Shown one piece after another: positions 7,955 through 58,947 of a stretch of DNA of 64,000 bases. Positions within the stretch are counted from its first letter, which is position 1; each line of letters opens with the position of its first letter. Position numbers and translations under genes: made by a program. The DNA comes from an uncultured Gammaproteobacteria bacterium (lineage in GTDB: Bacteria > Patescibacteriota > Patescibacteriia > Magasanikbacterales > GWA2-37-8). The stretch spans positions 396,537 through 460,536 of the forward strand of contig CAYHBZ010000002.1 of the NCBI GenBank assembly GCA_964355175.1, in the 5' to 3' direction. The notes beneath the pieces were generated by a model. It had not been told where the DNA came from and made no database searches. It saw only the letters and a program-made list of their open reading frames with translations.

Positions 7955-8072
7955 AATCAGTTAAAATCAAATTTAACACCACGAATTATTGCGCCAGGTT
8001 TTGAGAGAGGCCCTAGCAATACATATAGACAGCTAGGTTAATTCTCTCTCAAAGGAGAATTTTTTACTTGTC

Positions 8073-8084
8073 GTTCTTTACAAT
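8073..8084 (+). repeat. 12 bp direct repeat GTTCTTTACAAT, copy 1, at the 5' boundary of high-GC cassette 1
   Basis: Exact 12-mer, also present at 8940-8951 and 10397-10408. Each copy lies 75-170 nt upstream of a high-GC ORF. Confidence 0.55.
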
Positions 8085-8245
8085 AAATAGTGCTGAGCCC
8101 ACATGAGATCAAGAATTTCTTGATTTGATGCGGGTTCAGTGCACACAGCATTGACGTCCTCCGCGATTTTGCGGATTCGTTCAGTGCTGCGTACTGCAGC
8201 CAGGTCACGCGCCCACCTCAGTGGCGTTTCGTTCAGGAGTTTCCG

Positions 8246-8779
8246 ATGACCACCGCAAAGCACCCCGATCCGAACCATCCGGACCCCGGCACCACCGAAG
8301 AGCCCGTCGTCGACAAGGCGAAGGGCGACACGGTGGTGACCACGACGACCACCACGAGCGTTTCGTCGGCCGAGCCCATCAAGGCAAAGCCGGTGGCGAC
8401 CACCGACACCACGGCTGGCAAGACGGCGACCCAAGAGCCCAAGAAGGGTGGCTGGCCGCTCGGGACCATCGCCGGAGCTGTCGTGCTCGGTCTTCTGCTC
8501 CTCGGCGGCGTCTACTGGTTCGGCAGCCACAACAGCAGCACGCCGGTCGTCCCGCCCATCGCGGTCGCCGGTTGCTGTCTTCCCCAGGCCACCGTCGCGA
8601 GCCCCTGCTGCCCGCAACCGCCGGCTCCGCCCCCGCCGCCCGCCCCCGTCGTCAAGAAGAAGACGGTCGGCGAGTGCGTCGCCCAAGCCGTCGCCGGCAT
8701 GGAGGTCGCCCATGAGGACGACCGCCTCGCCGCGATGGACGGCGCCCGCGAAGAATGCGAGGAAGAATACGGCAAGTAG
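8246..8779 (+). CDS. High-GC hypothetical bitopic membrane protein with a Thr-rich N-terminus, one TM helix and a Pro/Cys-rich C-terminus
   Basis: About 68% GC ORF with RBS 'aggag' 8 nt upstream and a GC-rich hairpin downstream. The overlapping minus-strand ORF is judged a GC-shadow ORF. Confidence 0.5.
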   Translation: MTTAKHPDPNHPDPGTTEEPVVDKAKGDTVVTTTTTTSVSSAEPIKAKPVATTDTTAGKTATQEPKKGGWPLGTIAGAVVLGLLLLGGVYWFGSHNSSTPVVPPIAVAGCCLPQATVASPCCPQPPAPPPPPAPVVKKKTVGECVAQAVAGMEVAHEDDRLAAMDGAREECEEEYGK

Positions 8780-8939
8780 CCGTTCCTGTCTCGCGTCGCT
8801 ATGTCGGTTCGGCGGGCCCTCAGCAATGAGGGTCCGCCGGCCGACTGGCTCGAATAGGACCTTTGTAGATTCCACTAGGGAAACTCCAAAGGTCCCCTAG
8901 ATTACATTCTTTTGGAAACAAGAGGATGTTGATAGGAAA

Positions 8940-8951
8940 AGTTCTTTACAA
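8940..8951 (+). repeat. GTTCTTTACAAT, copy 2, at the boundary between cassettes 1 and 2
   Basis: Exact 12-mer. Followed by an 8 bp inverted repeat, ttcccacc...ggtgggaa. Confidence 0.55.
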
Positions 8952-9196
8952 TTAAAACCAACAAAATTTTTTCCCACCTAAAAAGAATTATTATTTATAG
9001 TAATTCACTCTCGGTGGGAAAAAGTGTGGCGGAAATTCCGTTGCATAGCCTCCGACAGAGTCCCAATTGGGGCAAGTGCCCCGCGTGCGGGCTACTCTGT
9101 TACAGCGACCATTTCTGGGAAGCTGACCGAACGGCCCGCACGGCCGGTGTTCCAGTGTCTTGGTTTCGTGGGGTGAAAGTCCCCTGGAGTACAGCG

Positions 9197-10192
9197 ATGA
9201 ACAAGAATTCGAAGTTCCACAACCTCAGCATCTTGCTGACCCTGGCCATGGGGATCATGGTCGCTTCCAATTCCTACGCCGACGTGGCCACGGCTCGCGC
9301 TCGTGCCGAAGCCGCTCGTAGCCAGGCCAATCGGGCTGAGGTGAAAGCGGTCGACGCACAGACTGCGGCCAACGCGGCCAAGACCGGCGCCACCAACGCC
9401 CAGACCGCGGCCGATCAGGCCAAGGTCGAAGCGACCGCGGTGGGCACCAAGGCGGCCACTGACCTCGCTACGGCGATCCGCGCCCTCAACGGTGCGGTCG
9501 GCGGTGCGCGTGCGGCAGCGGTCAACGGTGATCGTCAGCTCGAGCGCAAGTTCAAGGCGGAGGCCGAGCGCCTTCAGACCGAGATCGAAGCGCTCAAGAA
9601 GCGGGCGCAGCACGAGTGTGCGGCGTTCGATGACAAGGGCAGCCAGGCGGCCTGTCTGACCATGCTCGAGAAGATCAACGCCAAGAACGGCGAAGTCACC
9701 ATGCACGGGCAAGACAAGGACACGGAGGTCCAGATCGCCAAGGTGGGACAGCAGTCCAAGGTGGTCCAGGAGATCTTCGACAACGCAAACCAAAACATGG
9801 ACGCCATCAAGGCGATCCAAATGGGTTGCGTCAACCAGGCCTTCGTCGACAAGGACGGCGTCAGCAAGAGCAAGTGGGAATGCCCCAAGGACATGAAGCG
9901 CGGCCCGCAGTTGCGCTACGAGCTCACGAACGTCTCGAAGTACGGCGACCACAGCGTCGTCATCGAGCCGGCCGAGAGCGGTGGCAATTCCAAGTGGGGC
10001 AAAGTGCTCGGCTTCGGCGCCATCGGTGGTGCTGCTGGCGGTGCTCTTGGCTGGGCCTTCTTCCCGAACCATGAAACCATGGAAGATGGCAGCGTCATGC
10101 ACCGGAATTACACCGGTCTCGTCGCTGGCACGGCCATCGGTTTCGTGGTCACGGCGGTGGCCACCCTGGTCATCGAAGAACTGACCGAATAG
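9197..10192 (+). CDS. High-GC secreted/membrane protein with a signal peptide, an Ala-rich helical region and a C-terminal TM anchor
   Basis: Start chosen at MNKNSKFHNLSILLTLAMGIMVASNSYA, a signal-peptide-like sequence. The ORF track begins at 9014. Gly-rich TM helix at the C-terminus. Confidence 0.5.
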   Translation: MNKNSKFHNLSILLTLAMGIMVASNSYADVATARARAEAARSQANRAEVKAVDAQTAANAAKTGATNAQTAADQAKVEATAVGTKAATDLATAIRALNGAVGGARAAAVNGDRQLERKFKAEAERLQTEIEALKKRAQHECAAFDDKGSQAACLTMLEKINAKNGEVTMHGQDKDTEVQIAKVGQQSKVVQEIFDNANQNMDAIKAIQMGCVNQAFVDKDGVSKSKWECPKDMKRGPQLRYELTNVSKYGDHSVVIEPAESGGNSKWGKVLGFGAIGGAAGGALGWAFFPNHETMEDGSVMHRNYTGLVAGTAIGFVVTAVATLVIEELTE

Positions 10193-10396
10193 GTCAACGG
10201 GTGAGGAGATCACCCCAAAGGATTGCAAGTGTGTTGGTTCACTTGCGCCAAATCTCGGTGTAGCTTATCTTGTCCCGCATTCGCGGTACGAGAGAAAGTT
10301 CACTAAACCGGTGGCGTGAACGATGGCTCAAATAGAGCTGTCGGTCACGCCCCAACAACTATCTTCTGTTTTTCAAACAGGGGATTGAGTTGGTAA

Positions 10397-10408
10397 GTTC
10401 TTTACAAT
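10397..10408 (+). repeat. GTTCTTTACAAT, copy 3, at the boundary between cassettes 2 and 3
   Basis: Exact 12-mer. Followed by a 15 bp-stem hairpin, ttctcatacaggaca...tgtcctgtgtgagaa. Confidence 0.55.
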
Positions 10409-10641
10409 TTATTTCGTTAGATTTTCTCATACAGGACATAGGATATTTTTTGTATCTTGTGTCCTGTGTGAGAAGCCCCCAGTGGGGGTTGCCTGGGTGA
10501 AAACCCGACTAGGTCGGGGCGTTCGCTCCGGCAATTCCTCACTAGGGTGGTAAAAACGCCATCCGGACGGGTCAACTTCGACCTTTTCGGTAAAGTAGCA
10601 GTGTCTTTCTTTGTCCGCCCTTTAGTGGGCCGGAGGTTCTG

Positions 10642-12063
10642 ATGCGTAACCGGTTTCAATTGGTCGCGACTCTCGCGATGGCGGCTGCAGCCTGTGCAGC
10701 GTGTGGTGTCATCGAACATCCGGCCGATGCGGTCGTGATCGTGGTCGAAAAAGACGCCAGCAGCCAGGATGTCCAGCAGGACAACGGTCCGGCGCAGCAG
10801 CCCGAGATCGCGCAGACGGCCGACATCGCGCAGGACAACGGTCCGGCGACGAAGCCTGAGTGCGCGGTCGACAGCGACTGCGACGACAAGAACCCCTGCA
10901 CGACGGACGTCTGCGGCAGCAACGCCTGCGTCCACGTGGCCAACTCGGTCTCGTGCGACGACGGCAACGCCTGCACCAGCAACGACAAGTGCGGCTCCGA
11001 GAAGTGCTCGGGTGACCAGAAGGTCTGCGACGACAACAACCCCTGCACCGACGACGGCTGCGTCAGCGACGGCACCTGCCTGCACGGCGTCAACATCGTC
11101 AACTGCGACGACAGCGACGCCTGCACGGAAAAGGACCAGTGCGCCAACGGTAAGTGCGTCGGCCAGGTGAAGTCGTGCGACGACAAGGACAACTGCACGA
11201 CGGAATCGTGTGACAAGCTCAACGGGTGCTCGTCCACTCCGGTCGTCTGCCAGGACGCCGGGGATCCGTGCACGACGGAATCGTGCGACAAGGCAACGGG
11301 CAAGTGCTCGTCCACCACCGACTGCGACGACAAGGACGTCACCACGTTGGATGCCTGTGAACCGCTGCTCGAGACCGTGGGAATGGAGAAATGCCTCCAC
11401 ATCAAGATGCAGACCAAGTGCACCAAGAATGCGGATTGCGACGAGGACGGCGATCCGTGTTCGTTCGAGTTCTGTTCCCAGATCGGCTACTGCGCCAGCA
11501 AGTGGAAGTTGTGCGATGACGGAGACTACTGCACCCAGGACGAATGCGTCCCTCAGGCCGACTACGCCTGGTGCAAGAGCACTCAATACTCATGCGACGA
11601 CTACAACGCCTGCACGCTGGACTCCTGCACCAACGGCTACTGCCAACACAAGGGCAACGCCGCCATGTGCGACGACAAGGACTCCACCACCGCCGACTCG
11701 TGCAACCCTTCCCAGGGCTGCGTCAACACGCCGATTCCTCAACCCGGCGTGCCGAGCTCGACTCCTCCCTCGAATCCCTCGACCTGTGCGGCCTGGGGAG
11801 CGTGGATTTACTTGCCCACGGGCAACTGGCGCGGCGGCTATGACCTGACCGGTTCGTCTTCGCAAGAAACGGACCTGACAATCAGCGTCGACCAGTGGTA
11901 CGGCTTCAGCAACGCTCATTCTGTGTGGGCGTGGCTCAAGCCGTGGGGCAGTGCGGTACCGGCAAGCGTCAAGTGCACTGATCGGTGTGGTGTGGTCTTC
12001 CCCGCGAAGATCAGTGCCATGGCGGGTGGCTTCATCGCCATCTGCAGCACCGACCAGAAGTAG
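10642..12063 (+). CDS. High-GC putative lipoprotein with about 10 tandem Cys-rich repeats (C-D-D-x-N-x-C-T-x-D-x-C), resembling Myxococcales-type cysteine-rich repeats
   Basis: Signal peptide ending AAACAAC (lipobox-like). Repeated units 'CDDKNPCTTDVC' and 'CDDNNPCTDDGC'. RBS 'ggagg'. Internal DNA tandem repeats mirror the protein repeats. Confidence 0.6.
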   Translation: MRNRFQLVATLAMAAAACAACGVIEHPADAVVIVVEKDASSQDVQQDNGPAQQPEIAQTADIAQDNGPATKPECAVDSDCDDKNPCTTDVCGSNACVHVANSVSCDDGNACTSNDKCGSEKCSGDQKVCDDNNPCTDDGCVSDGTCLHGVNIVNCDDSDACTEKDQCANGKCVGQVKSCDDKDNCTTESCDKLNGCSSTPVVCQDAGDPCTTESCDKATGKCSSTTDCDDKDVTTLDACEPLLETVGMEKCLHIKMQTKCTKNADCDEDGDPCSFEFCSQIGYCASKWKLCDDGDYCTQDECVPQADYAWCKSTQYSCDDYNACTLDSCTNGYCQHKGNAAMCDDKDSTTADSCNPSQGCVNTPIPQPGVPSSTPPSNPSTCAAWGAWIYLPTGNWRGGYDLTGSSSQETDLTISVDQWYGFSNAHSVWAWLKPWGSAVPASVKCTDRCGVVFPAKISAMAGGFIAICSTDQK

Positions 12064-12330
12064 GCGGGGCTCAGGGGGTCTAACGGAAAAAGTTTTTGCT
12101 CTTTGGTAAAAGCAAACGGAAGGAGGTGTTCCTTTCGATAGGCCATTTCGGCCACCCATGCCAGAGGCGAGCGATCGCTAAAGGCTGGTCAACTAGGGGT
12201 GGTGTTGCTTCACCGCACACCACCCCGACCATCTCTAGCTCACAATATCTGTTGTGATCTGAAGATGGAAATAGCAATATGTCCATGACAAAAATACCAC
12301 CCTTCTCTCGGGCGGTTTTTTGTTTTTTAA

Positions 12331-18154: not shown

Positions 18155-18306
18155 AATAAGTCGTTTGTTCTTTATTTGGCAGGATAATTTTGGATTAAAA
18201 TTTTTAATTCAGAGTTATCGTGCCAACTTTCTCAATGCGTGTCGGCGAAATGCGTCGATATGTAAAGAGAGGTGCGAGAGCCTACATGGTAGGCAGGAGA
18301 GCAGGA

Positions 18307-19122
18307 ATGGCAGACAGCAGCCACAACGTTACTCAGGTCGGCATCACCGTCGGGCCGCCCAACGCCGATCTCGGCAGTGTGGTGGTTCGTCAGGAGGCGG
18401 CCAGGGCGGATCTCAATGAGCGGCGTACGCATCTCAGCTTGGTTGTCAAGCCCTCGGTCGATGATCTGGTCGCGCGGCTGAATGTCGAGCGGCAGGAAGT
18501 CGACCGCATCGGCGCGCTGGTCGATGCGGTAGAGCGCGAACAGGCGAAGAGCGTCAAGCACTTCGAATCGACGCTCGGCGGGCAGGCGCGGCTCTGGAAG
18601 AAGGGTTTCGACGCCCATGAGCGCTCGATCTTCTGGGTCAAGCTCCTCGGCGTCGTCGGCCTGGTCCTGGTCGGTATCGTCCTGGTCCTGAACCTGTCGT
18701 CCTCCTCGGACATCTCCACGGCCAAGTCGGAAGCCATCTCGGCCAAGACCACCGTGGCGGAGTTCAAGAAGGCCACCCAAGGCGAGGTCGTCAAGATCAA
18801 GAAGAGGCTCGATGCCAACAAGCTCGACATGGATCAGCTCAAGGATCAGATCAAGGTCGTCGGGCTCAAGGCTGACAAGAGCGTCGTCACTCGCATGGGC
18901 GAAGAGCTCAAAGAAGCCAACATCGAGCAGGACGGTCGGATCCAGGACATCGCCACCGCGATCATGGGCAAGGCCGACATAGCCGATCTCAAGAGCGTGA
19001 GGAGCGCAGTCGCGCAGGTTCGCCGGGCCAACGGCAAGGTGAACACGAAGATGACCAGGCTCGAAGCTCAGGTCCTGGAGCTCAAGGCCCAACTCCAGGC
19101 CCAACAGCCCAAGACCATGTAG
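18307..19122 (+). CDS. High-GC bitopic membrane protein with one TM helix and a coiled-coil C-terminal domain
   Basis: ATGGCAGAC start with RBS 'aggagag'. The ORF track starts at 18220. TM helix 'VKLLGVVGLVLVGIVLVLNL'. Confidence 0.5.
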   Translation: MADSSHNVTQVGITVGPPNADLGSVVVRQEAARADLNERRTHLSLVVKPSVDDLVARLNVERQEVDRIGALVDAVEREQAKSVKHFESTLGGQARLWKKGFDAHERSIFWVKLLGVVGLVLVGIVLVLNLSSSSDISTAKSEAISAKTTVAEFKKATQGEVVKIKKRLDANKLDMDQLKDQIKVVGLKADKSVVTRMGEELKEANIEQDGRIQDIATAIMGKADIADLKSVRSAVAQVRRANGKVNTKMTRLEAQVLELKAQLQAQQPKTM

Positions 19123-19193
19123 TCCGTTCCCGATCTGTTCGGGCACTTGTAGTTTAGCCTTGATTTCTGAAGGCAAAAGCTCGGTGAGGACGC

Positions 19194-19300
19194 AAAATCC
19201 CCCCAAGGGTGTGTCGTTTACTCGACACTACCTGCTTAGTTCGCAAAAAATTGTTTGCTGAGCAGAATAAAAAATCCGCTATTATGGTGGATTTTTTAAT
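19194..19300 (+). repeat. Conserved ~110 nt structured 3' element, family M1, copy a
   Basis: Aligns along its length with 20125-20238. The internal hairpin changes from gtgtcg/cgacac to gtgccgac/gtcggcac with pairing preserved. Ends in a hairpin plus U-tract. Confidence 0.55.
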
Positions 19301-19330
19301 CTAAAATATGCTGTTTTTAGGTCAGTAGTA

Positions 19331-19359
19331 TTGACAAAGTAGGATTTTTATGTTTTAAT
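19331..19359 (+). promoter_or_regulatory. sigma70-like promoter (TTGACA-17-TTTAAT) for high-GC gene 5
   Basis: TTGACA at 19331-19336. The 5'UTR is homologous to that of gene 4 (shared ttgttcttt...attaaaattttt). Confidence 0.4.
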
Positions 19360-19504
19360 AGTTCATTAGATTGTTCTTTTTAATCAATTCGCGCGACAAT
19401 TATAAATTAAAATTTTTCAATTTATAATCGTCGTGCGAATTTCAGTTTATCAATGACGGCCAGTCGGAGGTTCCGATTGGTTCAGCTCTTTCTGCGAGGT
19501 GAGC

Positions 19505-20074
19505 ATGGTTGATTTCAATCCCCCGGATCCAGTGGATCCAGAGAAGAAAAAGAAGCCTTCGTCGGCTGTGGAGACAGACCACAATTGGGAAGCCTGGGCC
19601 AACGATAATTCGGTCGATGACGGCAGTCATCCTCTGCCTGGTGAAGCCGAATACGTCGGACGGTCCGACCTTCCCATGACACGGGCACAGAAAGAGCGCA
19701 TCGCCGCGATCGTAGTCGGTACGGCCTTCCTGGTGTTGGTTTTCTTTGTCATCAATTTCGCTATCGGCAACAAGCTCAAGCATTCTGAAGCGGCCTCGTC
19801 CAACGAGGCTGGCAAGCAGAGCGCTCAGGCAAGTGCCGAAGTAGAATTGAAGGCAGAAGAAGCCGCCTCAGAGCAGGATCATACGGTCTCGCTGCCGGAT
19901 CACGCTTCGCAGGAAGATGATCTGGACGATGCTCGCGCGACCATCAAGGTCGTCGGTTTGGAGAAACGGCGCGTTCGAGATCCAGAGATGGAGCGGATCG
20001 CCGCAACCATCAAGATCGTGCCACTGCGTGTCAGTCCTGTCGCGGTACCGCTTCCAGCGGCCGCTACTCAGTAG
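19505..20074 (+). CDS. High-GC bitopic membrane protein with one TM helix
   Basis: ATG at 19505, alternatively the GTG at 19499. TM helix 'IAAIVVGTAFLVLVFFVINFAI'. No family recognised. Confidence 0.5.
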   Translation: MVDFNPPDPVDPEKKKKPSSAVETDHNWEAWANDNSVDDGSHPLPGEAEYVGRSDLPMTRAQKERIAAIVVGTAFLVLVFFVINFAIGNKLKHSEAASSNEAGKQSAQASAEVELKAEEAASEQDHTVSLPDHASQEDDLDDARATIKVVGLEKRRVRDPEMERIAATIKIVPLRVSPVAVPLPAAATQ

Positions 20075-20124
20075 TAGTCAAACATACTTTGAACCTAAAA
20101 GTGTGTGAGACTCCTGAACAGGAC

Positions 20125-20238
20125 AAAAAATCCCCAAAAGGGTGTGCCGACTGAAAAGTCGGCACTACCTGCTTAATCAATAAAACATTGTTTATTGAGC
20201 AGAATAAAAAATTCACTTTGAAAGGTGGATTTTTTAAT
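20125..20238 (+). repeat. Family M1, copy b. Doubles as a convergent terminator for the minus-strand PLP-enzyme gene
   Basis: See copy a. Confidence 0.55.
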
Positions 20239-20245
20239 TAGTTTT

Positions 20246-21136
20246 TTATTGTCCGGTAATTAGGCACGCTACCGGTCCGTTAAATTTCCAATTATTTTTT
20301 ATGGCTTGATGTAATCCTGCCACGGCCAAAGCGCTGTTGGGTGAAAGTTTTATTTTTTCTGTTCTAGATGTCAGTTGTATTGCTGAGGTTATTTCTGTAT
20401 TGCCGGCTACCCAACCAAACCCACGATTTTGTTTTAACGCTTTTAGTACGGCTGGTTTTCTGAGTGCGATTTTATCCACTATCGCTGTTGCCAGAGATTC
20501 ATTTTCTATTTCACAGCGTAATTGTGAAAAATTTTGCGCCATTGGATGTACTGATGCGGTCTGTACTATATGTATCTGAATTTTTAATTTTAATTTTTTA
20601 AATCCTTCGTCGAGACCCAGAGCGGTAGTACCAGAAGAAGTCGGCACAAACACCGCGGACAGGTTTTTTATTTTGGATAATTCTTTGGCCAGTTCAAAAT
20701 ATCCAAGTAGAGCGATGTCATCGGTCGATTGACGCAGCCATAGCGCTCGATTATTTTTTTCTAACTGAAAAGCGGATTGTTTGGGTTTTTTTATTTGGGT
20801 CAGAGTGATATTTCTATCCACTAGTTTTTGTAATTTTTTTAGTTTGGCTAAATCTATTTTTTCACCCACAAAGATTTGCAGAGTAATTTTATTTTTACTT
20901 TTCTGGTTCAGTTTTTTGATATAGAACGCGCTGGCGAGAGCCGCGTTGCCGGAAGACGAAACTACAAAATCCTTTGTCCCTGTTTTGAGGTGAGCATCAA
21001 TCATGATTGGCAAAGAGCGGCCCTTGTGTGACAGTAGCGGGTGTAGATCTTCACGCTTAAAATACAGCGGCTGTGAGAGGCCGATGGTCTGGGCTAATTT
21101 GGGATGTTTGGTTTGGGGAGTGAGCATACTTGCCAA
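20246..21136 (-). CDS. PLP-dependent fold-type II enzyme (threonine synthase/TrpB-like family)
   Basis: 'SHKGRS' Lys-containing PLP motif region and glycine-rich 'VVSSSGNAALASA'. Confidence 0.5.
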   Translation of the reverse strand: MASMLTPQTKHPKLAQTIGLSQPLYFKREDLHPLLSHKGRSLPIMIDAHLKTGTKDFVVSSSGNAALASAFYIKKLNQKSKNKITLQIFVGEKIDLAKLKKLQKLVDRNITLTQIKKPKQSAFQLEKNNRALWLRQSTDDIALLGYFELAKELSKIKNLSAVFVPTSSGTTALGLDEGFKKLKLKIQIHIVQTASVHPMAQNFSQLRCEIENESLATAIVDKIALRKPAVLKALKQNRGFGWVAGNTEITSAIQLTSRTEKIKLSPNSALAVAGLHQAIKNNWKFNGPVACLITGQ

Positions 21137-56121: not shown

Positions 56122-56206
56122 GGAGAGGTCGCATAGTGGCCGAGTGCGCCGCCTTGGAAAGGCGGTATACCGCAAGGTATCGAGGGTTCAAATCCCTCTC
56201 TCTCCG
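56122..56206 (+). tRNA. tRNA-Ser(GGA)
   Basis: Hand fold with anticodon loop TTGGAAA, long variable arm and T-arm GAGGG-TTCAAAT-CCCTC. No encoded CCA. Hairpin terminators at 56236-56270 and 56300-56330. Confidence 0.7.
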
Positions 56207-56405
56207 CTGGGTCACGCTTATATGAGCAAAGGGTTCATATTCCAAAAACATCTCGACTAAGTCGGGATGTTTTTTTACCAGATAAAAAAATAATTCTTCA
56301 TAAAAACACACCGTCGGGTGTGTTTTTATATTGACAAAAATGTATTTTTAGTATAGGCTCTAGCCTGATCGTTCTCGCGGATTTCTCGCGCTACAGGAGG
56401 ACATC

Positions 56406-56774
56406 ATGGCAGATTCTCTGCCGTTCCAAGAAGATCTGCGTAAGCCATTCCACATCTCAGTCTGCGACCGGATCGCTCTCTGCCTCACGGCAATGAGCAT
56501 CTCCGGTGGAAGGGAGATCCCGCTCGGCATCCAGGAGGTGACCAGAGACCTGGATCTCTTGGACAAGACCAAGGTCCCGGCCAAGGAACTGCCCAGTGTG
56601 ACAAAGGCCCTCTACGGCCTGCGGGTGATGTACGGCCCTCTCATGCCGACGGTTTCTCAGCGCCTGACCCAATCGATCGACCTCTTGGTCGTGTATCAAG
56701 AGGAGCTGGCCGAGGATGGCAAGCTGGATCGCGACCTCGTGTGGTTGCCGCCTGTCGTCGACCCGGTAGCCTAG
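56406..56774 (+). CDS. High-GC hypothetical protein (122 aa)
   Basis: RBS 'aggagga' 6 nt upstream. Long imperfect hairpin plus U-tract downstream (56890-56960). Confidence 0.45.
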   Translation: MADSLPFQEDLRKPFHISVCDRIALCLTAMSISGGREIPLGIQEVTRDLDLLDKTKVPAKELPSVTKALYGLRVMYGPLMPTVSQRLTQSIDLLVVYQEELAEDGKLDRDLVWLPPVVDPVA

Positions 56775-57041
56775 CTGGTCTGTAGATTTTCACCCGGTCT
56801 TCGTCTATGTCCGGGTTGAGAGGTGTTCATACACCACTCCGTCCCGACTTAGTCGAGACGTGAATCACCGCAAGGTAGTGACGAGAACATCAGACATTCA
56901 GACTGTTCGCGCTCACTTAAGATTATAACTTGATTATAGTTTTAAGTGACGAACAGTCTTTTTGTTTTTTCTAAAGGATATTTTATAGATACGGATGGCA
57001 ATACTTTTGGTTTGCATCAGCCGGATGAAAAGGCGGCATAA

Positions 57042-57070
57042 TTGACTTTTTTGAATTTAATCGCTAAAAT
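57042..57070 (+). promoter_or_regulatory. sigma70 promoter TTGACT-17-TAAAAT
   Basis: Counted directly. About 35 nt upstream of the ATG at 57106. Confidence 0.5.
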
Positions 57071-57105
57071 GGTGTTCAGCCATTTTGGCTTTTTGGAGTT
57101 TCGCC

Positions 57106-57327
57106 ATGAGTGTAAAATATCGTCCGGGAACCGGCAGGGAGCCGCGCATCTTCCATGAGAGTATGGGCTTGCCCAGCCGGACGGTCGTTCAGATCGACTG
57201 GTGGACCTGTCCGAACCTGATCGTGAAGGATGAGCAGTTCGGAAATCGCGAACTCTGTGACTTTCAGAACCCGTCTTGGGAACACAAGTGCCAGGGTTGC
57301 GGTGCCGATCGTCCCGATAAGTCCTAG
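57106..57327 (+). CDS. High-GC small protein with a C-terminal RanBP2-like zinc-finger motif (W-x-C...C-x3-N-x6-C-x2-C)
   Basis: Start at MSVKYRP; the ORF track begins at 57085. 'DWWTCPN...CDFQNPSWEHKCQGCGADRP'. Confidence 0.5.
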   Translation: MSVKYRPGTGREPRIFHESMGLPSRTVVQIDWWTCPNLIVKDEQFGNRELCDFQNPSWEHKCQGCGADRPDKS

Positions 57328-57335
57328 GAGGACTC

Positions 57336-57456
57336 ATGCGTATCCGCGCACCCCCGCCTTAAAAAAGGCACAGGGAAGTAGCGGAATAAAAACCGCCGCC
57401 AACCTGTTTTGTTTCCAAATACAATTGGAGATGGGATAGGCTGGCGGTTTTTTGTT
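57336..57456 (+). other. Module M2, copy a: mini-ORF MRIRAPPP-stop followed by a terminator hairpin with a conserved loop
   Basis: RBS 'aggagga' overlaps the upstream TAG. The 9-codon ORF spans 57336-57362. Hairpin aaccgccgcc...ggctggcgg plus U-tract at 57388-57456. Confidence 0.5.
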
Positions 57457-57511
57457 TGACTTCCAGAGAGGGATTTGATAGTTTTGATGGGCGCAAATTT
57501 CGCGCCAACCA

Positions 57512-57925
57512 GTGAGGAACACAATGACTTGTGGTCAACGTCGCAAACTGCGTCTTGATATGATCGTGGTCAAGGGCTGGAACGGTCGTCGCCTCTCCAA
57601 GGGGTGTCGGAAGTACATACGCCGTCACCTGCCTCTGGAATGGCAGGCGATCGAGGATCGTGCTCAACAGGAGCGTGAGCTGGTGCGGCAGATCGAGCTG
57701 CACAAGGCGGCTGCTCGCAACAAGCAGACGGCTACGCGGCCGAGCTTCTCCGCGCCGTCGTTCGCTACGGCGAAGCCTGCACCGGTGCCGGTCAAGCCTC
57801 CGCGGGATCCATGGTGGACCTGCAAGGCCGAAACCAAGGGAGGTTATTTCTCCGGCGCCTGCAACGAGCTGAACTACAGTAATACCTCCTGCACCTACTG
57901 TGGTGCGGCTCGCCCGGCAGCGTGA
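57512..57925 (+). CDS. High-GC protein with a basic N-terminus and a C-terminal RanBP2-like zinc-finger motif (paralogous C-terminus to 57106)
   Basis: 'PWWTCKAETKGGYFSGACNELNYSNTSCTYCGAARP'. Confidence 0.5.
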   Translation: MRNTMTCGQRRKLRLDMIVVKGWNGRRLSKGCRKYIRRHLPLEWQAIEDRAQQERELVRQIELHKAAARNKQTATRPSFSAPSFATAKPAPVPVKPPRDPWWTCKAETKGGYFSGACNELNYSNTSCTYCGAARPAA

Positions 57926-57931
57926 GGAATC

Positions 57932-58054
57932 ATGCACTACTCCACCGGACCGCCTTGAAATATAGGTGGGCAGGGCGGAGGAAGATTACATCGACCACCA
58001 AACTGCTTTGTATGAAAATTTTTTATATAGAGCAGAGTGGTCGATGTTTTTTTA
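57932..58054 (+). other. Module M2, copy b: mini-ORF MHYSTGPP-stop followed by a terminator hairpin with a conserved loop
   Basis: RBS 'gaggaa'. ORF spans 57932-57958. 11 bp perfect stem acatcgaccac/gtggtcgatgt plus U7. Confidence 0.5.
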
Positions 58055-58064
58055 TTTGAAATAC

Positions 58065-58093
58065 TTGACAAAAGCTCTATTTTTGTCTATAAT
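58065..58093 (+). promoter_or_regulatory. Consensus sigma70 promoter TTGACA-17-TATAAT
   Basis: Perfect hexamers with a 17 nt spacer. Confidence 0.55.
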
Positions 58094-58197
58094 CATTAGT
58101 TAATTAATGGTCATCATATGATGCACGCCCAAAGAGGTTGGTCGTGTTTCATACCGTGATCCGTTAAGGAACATGGGCAACTCGCGTAGGGGGAAAT

Positions 58198-58746
58198 ATG
58201 TTGGAAATCATTTTGGAACCGAAGCTCAAGAACAAGTTCCTGACCGCTCGGGTCAAGGCGCATTGCGGGGTCATGACATGGTCGTTTTGCACCGCTGAAG
58301 GCGGTGTGGCGATCATCGAAGCGTTCGTCCGCGAACGCGTCTGGGGCTGGCAGGAAACTCGTCCGCTCTGCCGCCAGATGGAAGCGACTTTCCCCAAGGA
58401 TGCCAGCAAGTTGGCCGCCTGGCTCAACATGTTCGAGTCCTCCTCGTGCGATGTGGCCGTTCAGCCCATCCATCTCGTGGATCAAGCCGGCGCTTCCCTC
58501 GCTATCAGTGGCAACCAGCTGCATGATGGTGTGGTCGCTACGATCGGTACGGCCGTCTGCATGCTGGATCACTACCTCGTTCGCGGGGTGTTGCGCAACG
58601 GCGACTGCATCTCCGCGACGCAGCAGATGCTCCAGGCTGGCATGACCGACGTCATTTCGGAAAAGGCGTTTCGTGCTTTGACCGGTGGCATTCCGCTGTC
58701 CGGTTTCAACGAGTACGACTACCGTCGGATGGTCGGTCAACTCTAG
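58198..58746 (+). CDS. High-GC hypothetical protein (182 aa, Cys-containing, soluble)
   Basis: RBS 'aggggg'. The overlapping minus-strand ORF is judged a shadow. Confidence 0.5.
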   Translation: MLEIILEPKLKNKFLTARVKAHCGVMTWSFCTAEGGVAIIEAFVRERVWGWQETRPLCRQMEATFPKDASKLAAWLNMFESSSCDVAVQPIHLVDQAGASLAISGNQLHDGVVATIGTAVCMLDHYLVRGVLRNGDCISATQQMLQAGMTDVISEKAFRALTGGIPLSGFNEYDYRRMVGQL

Positions 58747-58763
58747 TCAAAGAGGAGGAGAAC

Positions 58764-58892
58764 ATGGTTTCTATCCGTGCTCCGCCCCGATAAAGGGCGA
58801 TAGGAAGGAGTACGGAGACAAAGAAAGCCGCGCACCAACCTATTTTGTTTCTAAATTTTTGGAAATAGAATAGGGTGCGTGGCTTTTGTTTT
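58764..58892 (+). other. Module M2, copy c: mini-ORF MVSIRAPPR-stop followed by a terminator hairpin with a conserved loop
   Basis: RBS 'gaggaggag'. ORF spans 58764-58793. Stem gccgcgcacc/ggtgcgtggc plus U-tract. Confidence 0.5.
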
Positions 58893-58947
58893 CCCCTATA
58901 CAAAACCTCATTTTTTGTGTAGGATAAGGGTTGATAACTTAATCAAT

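Follow-up and report, generated by a model that had tools for sequence, protein, structure and literature searches.

What does a minute open reading frame (ORF) do when it is lodged between the stop codon of a gene and the terminator behind it? The question is raised by the stretch of DNA analyzed here (64,000 nucleotides of contig CAYHBZ010000002.1, called the window below), in which an earlier note had described three modules of this kind, each past the stop codon of a high-GC gene and carrying the mini-ORFs MRIRAPPP, MHYSTGPP, and MVSIRAPPR, respectively. All three, termed m1, m2, and m3, were confirmed in the sequence where the note had placed them. The module is a real, selected two-hairpin element of gene 3' ends, and the regulatory output that had been ascribed to it was supported in part. 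As judged from the comparisons described below, it probably represents an unusually short stalling ORF of the RAPP type that has been built into a 3'-end RNA module.

The chromosome has a GC content of ca. 41% in the window and contains three islands of 50-62% GC, the third of which holds the modules. This island is bounded by a tRNA-Ser(GGA) gene (56122-56207) and a trhO-type gene (UPF0176_N/Rhodanese/Rhodanese_C), and its content is four orphan genes on one strand, encoding proteins of 122, 73, 133, and 182 amino acids (aa). Each module lies 3' of the stop codon of a gene of ca. 55-60% GC. Pattern scans of public genomes returned Candidatus Magasanikbacteria metagenome-assembled genomes, from the candidate phyla radiation (CPR), as the closest relatives, and the host is a Magasanikbacteria-like (CPR) bacterium. 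The three partner genes, their Shine-Dalgarno (SD) sequences, and the mini-ORFs are located as follows.

57106-57327, + strand: 73-aa high-GC orphan gene, partner upstream of m1; C-terminal zinc ribbon with a weak RanBP2-type match; stop codon TAG at 57325-57327
57326-57331, + strand: SD of m1, AGGAGG, overlapping the TAG stop of the 73-aa gene; GAGGA in the orthologue L048
57336-57362, + strand: mini-ORF of m1, MRIRAPPP-stop; MRIRAPPPY-stop in the orthologue L048/L049
57524-57925, + strand: 133-aa high-GC orphan gene, partner upstream of m2; C-terminal zinc ribbon as in the 73-aa protein; stop codon TGA at 57923-57925
57924-57927, + strand: SD of m2, GAGG, overlapping the TGA stop of the 133-aa gene
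57932-57958, + strand: mini-ORF of m2, MHYSTGPP-stop; MRYSTGPP-stop (L020) and MKHPTGPP-stop (L044) in orthologues
58198-58746, + strand: 182-aa high-GC orphan gene, partner upstream of m3; supported by homologue clusters and by the codon-position pattern; stop codon TAG at 58744-58746
58752-58760, + strand: SD of m3, GAGGAGGAG, beginning 6 nt past the TAG stop of the 182-aa gene
58764-58793, + strand: mini-ORF of m3, MVSIRAPPR-stop; four orthologues

The SD thus overlaps the upstream stop codon in m1 and m2, as the note had it for all of the modules; that of m3 follows the stop. Chance is excluded as the origin of the three modules. The window contains 108 ORFs of 4-15 codons with an SD in front; exactly three of them end in PP(X0-2), and these are m1, m2, and m3. 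The tetrapeptide RAPP occurs five times in the six-frame translation of the 64 kb; two of these matches are the mini-ORFs of m1 and m3, and the remaining three lie in high-GC genes, out of frame or on the non-coding strand. RAPP is absent from every credible protein-coding frame of the window, consistent with reports that bacterial proteomes avoid it. Fusion of a mini-ORF to the main ORF by read-through or frameshifting was rejected because the relative frames are inconsistent (+2, 0, and +2). Hairpins that would couple the end of the main ORF to the SD or AUG of the mini-ORF are present and are no better than those of shuffled sequences (z-scores of -1.2 to +1.0).

Eleven mini-ORF modules, taken from the window and from five related Magasanikbacteria-like contig groups, were compared, and 15 instances of the terminator hairpin were aligned (L-numbers denote loci of relatives). 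The orthologue of m1 was L048/L049. Those of m2 were L020 and L044/L045, with L047 contributing the m2 terminator alone; those of m3 were L020, L044/L045, L046, and L047. L028 is an independent paralogue with the mini-ORF MSARAPPPL-stop, and L050-L053 represent the same strain as the window. The search for further copies, which the note had suggested, yielded orthologues in relatives and one paralogue, and no additional PP-ending mini-ORF in the window. Pattern scans of genomes and metagenomes found the module in two species and at five metagenome loci (four distinct sequences), and the family looks narrow or else poorly sampled. Homologues of the Cys-rich protein encoded at L042 were also used to seek further modules; none of those homologues had one.

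Across the five m3 orthologues, the mean pairwise difference per site was 0.43 in the linker from the main stop codon to the SD, 0.12 from the SD to the start codon, 0.10 in the mini-ORF, 0.076 in the purine-rich strand that follows it (R2), 0.046 in the terminator hairpin (T), and 0.28 past the U-tract. Third positions of the 182-aa gene differed by 0.25-0.41 among the same orthologues. By this measure, the module is under selection. The AGGAGG of the m3 SD was invariant in five orthologues, next to a variable linker on its 5' side. SD, start codon, and frame were retained in all 11 mini-ORFs, ATG having changed to GTG once. The m1-type stop codon has disappeared from L048, where an in-frame stop follows one codon farther on; in L047, a stop has taken the place of the codon past PP. 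The m3 orthologues read MVSIRAPPQ-stop (L020), MVSIRAPPQ-stop with the GTG start (L044), MYSIRAPPR-stop (L046), and MVSIRAPP-stop (L047).

The core of the peptide is (I)RAPP or TGPP, located 0-2 codons before the stop; RAPP is found in m1, m3, L028, and all of their orthologues. Five changes were found in core codons among orthologues, and all five were synonymous, third-position changes: GCT>GCA, GCT>GCC, GCA>GCG, CCC>CCA, and ACC>ACT. The changes GCA>GCG and CCC>CCA separate m1 from L048/L049, and ACC>ACT occurred among the m2 orthologues. By our own calculation, the chance of five such changes is (1/3)^5, or ca. 0.004. The paralogues m1 and m3 differ in the core at precisely the four third positions of CGN GCN CCN CCN (1 in 495, again by our own calculation), and in L028 the RAPP codons are a third set again. 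Free variation is seen at codons 2-4 and at the codon past PP (V/Y, H/R/K, Y/H, S/P, R/Q/stop). This pattern of changes suggests selection on the peptide. Together with the low divergence between SD and start codon, it argues that the mini-ORFs behave as the conserved, translated units that the note had taken them for, and we consider translation and peptide-level constraint likely. The conservation is partly confounded, because the whole module is also under RNA-level constraint.

That constraint is evident in two hairpins, H1 and T, which were located by folding and by covariance models.

57343-57385, + strand: H1 of m1 (-19.8 kcal/mol, z = -3.1)
57388-57455, + strand: T of m1, with an 11-bp lower stem, a CAA bulge, a 16-bp G·U-rich upper stem, and a U-tract (folding; covariance model, 68 bits)
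57940-57980, + strand: H1 of m2 (-20.4 kcal/mol, z = -2.6)
57987-58051, + strand: T of m2, with the same architecture and an upper stem of different but compensated sequence (covariance model, 78 bits)
58774-58816, + strand: H1 of m3 (-22.2 kcal/mol, z = -3.2)
58824-58889, + strand: T of m3 (folding; covariance model, 84.5 bits)

The consensus of the 15 T instances features an 11-bp lower stem, an invariant 3-nt CAA bulge on the 5' side, a 16-bp G·U-rich upper stem (27 bp in total), a loop of 3-6 nt, and a U-tract; an A-tract is present as well. What the note had read as a conserved loop of ca. 38 nt is, upon folding, the upper stem with its small closing loop. Compensatory changes were found at 13 of the 27 pairs, and 97.8% of the alignment cells were paired, compared to 82.7% in shuffles and 36-50% when the partners were slid. 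Paralogues have wholly different lower stems; in the upper stem, the U-rich strand on the 5' side hardly varies. The long hairpin and U-tract of the note were thus recovered; its conserved inner sequence does not extend to the upper stem of m2, which is compensated instead. The folding energy was -36 to -39 kcal/mol for the + strand RNA versus -22 to -24 kcal/mol for the - strand; because the upper stem is rich in G·U pairs, the full fold is available to the + strand RNA only. With a GC-rich stem, a U-tract, a position at gene 3' ends, and covariation, T is a real RNA structure and a strong intrinsic terminator. The hairpin motif was found at these three sites alone in the window. A covariance-model search of the window for diverged versions of T returned the three modules, the terminator of the 122-aa gene, and unrelated long hairpins of the second island. 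In a comparison to Rfam, the gathering threshold was reached by the tRNAs of the window alone, and the hairpins gave sub-threshold, chance-like matches.

H1 is formed by codons 3-8 of the mini-ORF (R1) and the purine-rich strand R2, with the SD and start codon outside the helix. The purine-rich stretch is conserved, as the note had stated; it is not a spacer, since it serves as the 3' arm of a hairpin whose 5' arm is the mini-ORF. The helix begins at +8 to +11 of the mini-ORF, and the stop codon of the mini-ORF falls in the apical loop in every class. Differing sequences form H1 in every class (-19 to -26 kcal/mol, z of -2.6 to -3.3), and the changes in R2 among m3 orthologues (A>G and C>U) preserve the pairs as wobbles. 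Some of the synonymous core changes described above break H1 pairs and are uncompensated, and the RAPP classes place the core codons in three different helix registers.

The IRAPP of the mini-ORFs had been likened to RAPP-type arrest motifs, and it does equal the core of ApdP, which reads QSKCI-RAPP. RAPP is a documented arrest core, in which a variable N-terminal module precedes a strict C-terminal core. The mini-ORFs resemble the arrest peptides of this type (ApdA, ApdP, ApcA; SecM with RAGP; CruR/DUF2946) in having an R-A-P-P core a few residues before the stop, in the strict conservation of that core beside variable N-terminal neighbors, in the Ile before RAPP (as in ApdP and in the GIRAGP of SecM), and in the overlap of the ORF with an RNA structure whose fold would depend on ribosome occupancy. 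They differ in length (8-10 codons versus roughly 70-150 or more residues) and fall short of the usual N-terminal segment, the part backing the arrest being about 5-12 residues in ApdP and ApdA compared to fMet and 2-3 residues ahead of RAPP here. Unlike these peptides, they have no signal peptide, transmembrane segment, or sensing domain; they sit after a gene instead of heading a sec/yidC or metal operon, and what follows them is an intrinsic terminator, neither a helix that masks an SD nor a Rho site. The m2 class, moreover, has TGPP in place of RxPP. In literature searches, every RAPP peptide that turned up was an annotated protein encoded ahead of sec/yidC, metal, or other genes, and no 3'-terminal mini-ORF of the present kind was found.

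The layout is also that of a ribosome-mediated transcription attenuator (the trp/his type, or the cat/cmlA/erm leaders). A short, SD-led ORF lies over strand 1 of a 1:2 hairpin, and strand 2 is able to pair with strand 3 of a downstream 3:4 terminator with a U-tract. In length, the mini-ORF peptides resemble drug-dependent leader peptides, which have 5-9 residues. In contrast to attenuators, the module is located at the 3' end of a complete gene, has no runs of regulatory codons, and is usually followed by genes with their own promoters; its 2:3 pairing is weak and spans part of strand 3 only, and its terminator is ca. 17-25 kcal/mol more stable than that pairing.

From the observed structures, covariation, conservation of ORF and codons, and geometry, we infer translation of the mini-ORF, stalling at its end, and an effect on termination. 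The reading that we tentatively prefer is that stalling on the mini-ORF opens H1 and lowers termination at T, with partial read-through as the consequence. Each module is a conserved cassette of two RNA hairpins that closes a lineage-specific accessory gene at its 3' end. Because a strong SD overlaps or closely follows the main stop codon, ribosomes finishing the main gene would re-initiate at the mini-ORF. They would then pause at its end, either at Pro-Pro-stop or, with the peptide bond not yet formed, at RAP/P. R1, the loop, and the first part of R2 would all lie under a ribosome that has RAP in its P site, which by geometry forces H1 open. The purine-rich R2 would thereby be freed to pair collinearly with the 5' arm of T. 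Termination at T might then be lowered as long as the upstream gene is translated, allowing partial read-through; this last step is a committed guess. With no ribosome present, both H1 and T would form and transcription would stop. The pairing capacity of R2 is consistent with this proposal. Part of the 3' arm of T is mimicked in R2 (as RYAGG in every class, and over 8 of 10 nt in relatives that have no mini-ORF), the GC-rich stretch of R2 matches the lower stem of each paralogue's own T, and a collinear duplex of R2 with the 5' arm of T is available in 15 of 15 instances. Between m2 and L020, a linked triple change was observed: GCAG>GUAG in R2, CUGC>CUAC in the 5' arm of T, and GCAG>GUAG in its 3' arm.

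Several results weigh against the preferred reading. Regarding the peptide, the m2 class has a TGPP core, which is not an RxPP motif, and just 2-4 residues precede RAPP where it occurs. In published work, the RAPP motif did not suffice by itself, and about five or more of the residues preceding it made a contribution; one selection study found a minimal RxPP to be sufficient, and the short N-terminal segment therefore does not exclude stalling. Regarding termination, when a ribosome footprint was imposed on the mini-ORF, T was still part of the minimum-free-energy fold (ca. -37 kcal/mol), and no antiterminator appeared in the minimum-free-energy folds computed with the mini-ORF so masked. The duplex of R2 with the 5' arm of T is weak (-12 to -20 kcal/mol; z of +0.1 to -2.6 versus shuffles), and the upper stem of T, when free, should act as a large toehold that lets the 3' arm of T displace R2. 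Of the translation-controlled termination proposed in the note, then, the attenuator layout (an ORF on a hairpin arm upstream of a terminator) was upheld, and the switching itself was weakened, with T intact under the footprint and its competitor weak.

The surroundings of T add to these objections. A perfect promoter lies directly past the T of m2:

58065-58093, + strand: consensus promoter TTGACA-17-TATAAT (12/12), starting 10 nt past the m2 U-tract; conserved in L044, L046, and L047

By eye, extended -10 or 11/12 promoters were found past T in L028, L032, L041, and L042, and a second terminator follows T in L048. Because promoters or a terminator follow T, control of read-through seems unnecessary in most contexts. 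The note had proposed read-through into the next gene in all three cases. A regulated downstream gene without its own promoter, as an attenuator would have, is contradicted at m2; it could hold for m1 and m3, past which no promoter scoring at least 9/12 was found between T and the next gene, just 8/12 look-alikes. Genes next downstream of the module are not conserved among relatives. Pairing between the 5' untranslated region (UTR) of each gene and its own 3' module was no better than in shuffles. Furthermore, the mini-ORF is absent at the five metagenome loci, L032 (identical to L036), L034/L042, L041, and L043, which share T and the GGGAAGCAGCGG element with the other modules and also have an H1. 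These modules follow genes for Cys-rich, lipoprotein-like proteins and contain no SD-AUG mini-ORF and no Pro codons, and H1 begins 1-14 nt past the main stop codon. Since these relatives carry H1 and T, the pair of hairpins is the older and more widespread module, and the mini-ORF is particular to one subfamily. Finally, the sample is small, comprising four paralogue classes from one narrow lineage.

A wider formulation, possible in our estimation though on the doubtful side, is that the modules constitute a new class of 3'-terminal, translationally coupled, ribosome-sensing switch that uses the shortest natural RAPP-type arrest ORFs known and serves as a portable cassette of unrelated CPR orphan genes. 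The ribosome would be caught just after the accessory gene, with a nascent chain of six to seven residues at the stall site. Translation of the mRNA would alter the fold of the terminator region and lead to read-through or to a changed fate of the 3' end. Conditional read-through at T is possible but unproven, and an effect on the 3'-end fate of the upstream mRNA is about equally plausible.

The latter is the substance of a second explanation, which we regard as unlikely: the mini-ORF stalls ribosomes, T terminates constitutively, and it is the mRNA upstream that is affected, either by the stalled ribosome or by H1 in its opened state. The outcome could be altered stability or processing of the 3' end, exposure of the GGA/GGAGG-rich R2 to a nuclease or binding protein, or a decay dependent on ribosome collision or rescue that limits output. 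The evidence from mini-ORF conservation applies here equally. T is very stable and has the A-tract and U-tract that are hallmarks of a strong terminator, and a promoter is located directly past it in most contexts. The module also travels with the upstream gene, in that the downstream neighbors differ in L048 and L028 and the m2-type module of L044 belongs to a different gene, and further high-GC genes of the window have conserved, structured 3' UTR cassettes of their own. This account is weakened by the distances from the main stop codon to the stall site (26, 27, and 38 nt), which are inconsistent as a collision geometry, and by the fact that no specific nuclease or protein site was identified. 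It also leaves the mimicry of the 3' arm of T by R2, found throughout the family, unexplained.

Equally unlikely in our view is an RNA-only module, in which H1 and T make up a tandem hairpin terminator or stabilizer, possibly bound by a protein that recognizes the bulge and the conserved upper-stem strand. The SD-AUG-...-PP-stop would then be untranslated, or an inconsequential by-product of a C-rich arm facing a G-rich arm. The mini-ORF CCN codons are indeed the C-rich arm of H1; the loci devoid of a mini-ORF (L032/L036, L041, L042, and L043) keep H1, the GGGAAGCAGCGG element, and T; the RNA-level constraint over the whole module partly confounds the conservation of the ORF; and the terminator of the 122-aa gene shares the stem-bulge-stem geometry with no ORF attached. 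Known 3' stabilizers or retroregulator hairpins include the cry1Aa terminator of Bacillus thuringiensis and lambda sib. The module is like 3' stabilizers and long intrinsic terminators in placing a very stable hairpin of ca. 27 bp with A- and U-tracts right past the accessory coding region and in being common to unrelated genes. Unlike them, it has an upper-stem strand of conserved sequence, a bulge that is invariant, a further conserved hairpin, and a conserved mini-ORF within it. Against the RNA-only account, the three-base periodicity of the core changes is unexpected in a helix arm, and several of the changes break pairs that go uncompensated; one RAPP peptide is maintained in three helix registers; SD and start codon are conserved beside a freely varying linker; the start survives a change of ATG to GTG, and the stop is relocated in frame; and none of the remaining 105 SD-preceded mini-ORFs of the window has a PP ending.

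A mobile or recombination repeat marking cassettes inserted next to tRNA-Ser (a palindrome like those of miniature inverted-repeat transposable elements or repetitive extragenic palindromes, or an integron attC-like site) is very improbable and was rejected: the location between tRNA-Ser and trhO, the copies of the tRNA 3' end, and an imperfect palindrome with an extrahelical bulge 3' of each of three same-orientation orphan genes would suit it, but the defining R''/R' boxes (RYYYAAC...GTTRRRY) are missing (the 5' side has RYYAAC with its CAA bulged, and there is no GTT partner or GTTRRRY on the 3' side), the fold is specific to the RNA strand in needing G·U pairs (the other strand is 12-17 kcal/mol weaker), each gene has its own promoter, the lower stems are wholly different between copies and yet covary, unlike recent repeat copies, there are three copies only in 64 kb, and a pattern scan of IMG/VR contained no true copy among the 120 matches listed. 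The same 120 matches led to the rejection of a phage origin.

If the mini-ORFs stall ribosomes as in the preferred reading, the RAPP core would need hardly any nascent chain ahead of it, which bears on how much N-terminal context RAPP arrest requires. Arrest-peptide regulation would then reach CPR bacteria and ORFs of fewer than 10 codons that are unannotated and invisible to proteome-based surveys, and it would occupy a position undescribed for arrest peptides, past a gene and within its terminator module. Even if the mini-ORF were inert, there would remain a strand-specific terminator supported by covariation, with a bulge and a sequence-conserved strand, that is common to unrelated orphan genes; as such, the module is a candidate signal for protein binding or for processing in a lineage of which little is known.

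Additional features of the partner genes were noted. The proteins of 73 and 133 aa have in common a C-terminal zinc ribbon of the form WWTC-x-C-x-N-x-C-x2-CGA-RP. When the four island orphan proteins were compared to Pfam, NCBIfam, and PADLOC, nothing was found beyond the weak RanBP2-type zinc-ribbon match. Among 5.8 billion proteins, five homologue clusters were found for the 182-aa protein and two for the 73-aa protein. Differences between orthologues of the 182-aa gene are mostly at third positions (e.g., 17/11/56 at codon positions 1/2/3), and because these prevail, the gene is truly protein-coding. Its 5' UTR of ca. 100 nt (58094-58197) is almost invariant in L044, L046, and L047, while synonymous sites of the gene differ by 25-40%, making this region a candidate cis-regulatory leader. 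In L044, a gene like that of the 73-aa protein bears a module of the m2 type, suggestive of an exchange of modules or of gene ends.

The fourth gene of the island has a terminator of its own:

56899-56963, + strand: terminator of the 122-aa gene; T-like stem-bulge-stem of unrelated sequence, no mini-ORF (33 bits)

It consists of a 10-bp stem, a 3-nt 5' bulge, and a 16-bp stem, and it belongs to a structured 3' UTR of ca. 190 nt (56775-56965) that is conserved in L044 and L048. The appearance of the T geometry on unrelated sequence hints that the geometry itself is recognized by something. In the second island, the high-GC genes at 18220-19122 and 19506-20074 share a multi-hairpin 3' UTR cassette of ca. 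110 nt with its own terminator (79% identity), located at 19123-19310 and 20075-20250 and differing from the H1-T modules. Because it recurs in the second island, the sharing of structured 3' cassettes between neighboring orphan genes seems to be a general trait of the genome.

Orphan genes of 55-62% GC occupy 8000-12300, 18200-20100, and 56350-58890 of this 41% GC CPR genome. Some of them encode Cys-rich, Dicty_CTDC-like or secreted proteins, and their promoters and terminators are AT-rich and of the host type. A perfect 14-nt inverted copy (57465-57478) of the tRNA-Ser 3' end (56188-56201) is located between the m1 terminator and the 133-aa gene, and a degenerate direct copy lies just past the tRNA (56230-56243); both look like scars left in the island by integration or rearrangement. 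The island promoters and the look-alike before trhO (58065-58093, 58897-58925, and 56331-56359) share the pattern TTGACAAAA...ATTTTTGT...TATAAT with a palindromic spacer, which possibly represents a common operator. In the first island, three exact copies of GTTCTTTACAAT (8073-8084, 8941-8952, and 10397-10408) were found, each upstream of a high-GC gene, compared to a chance expectation of 0.5; this sequence is likely a shared promoter or operator element.

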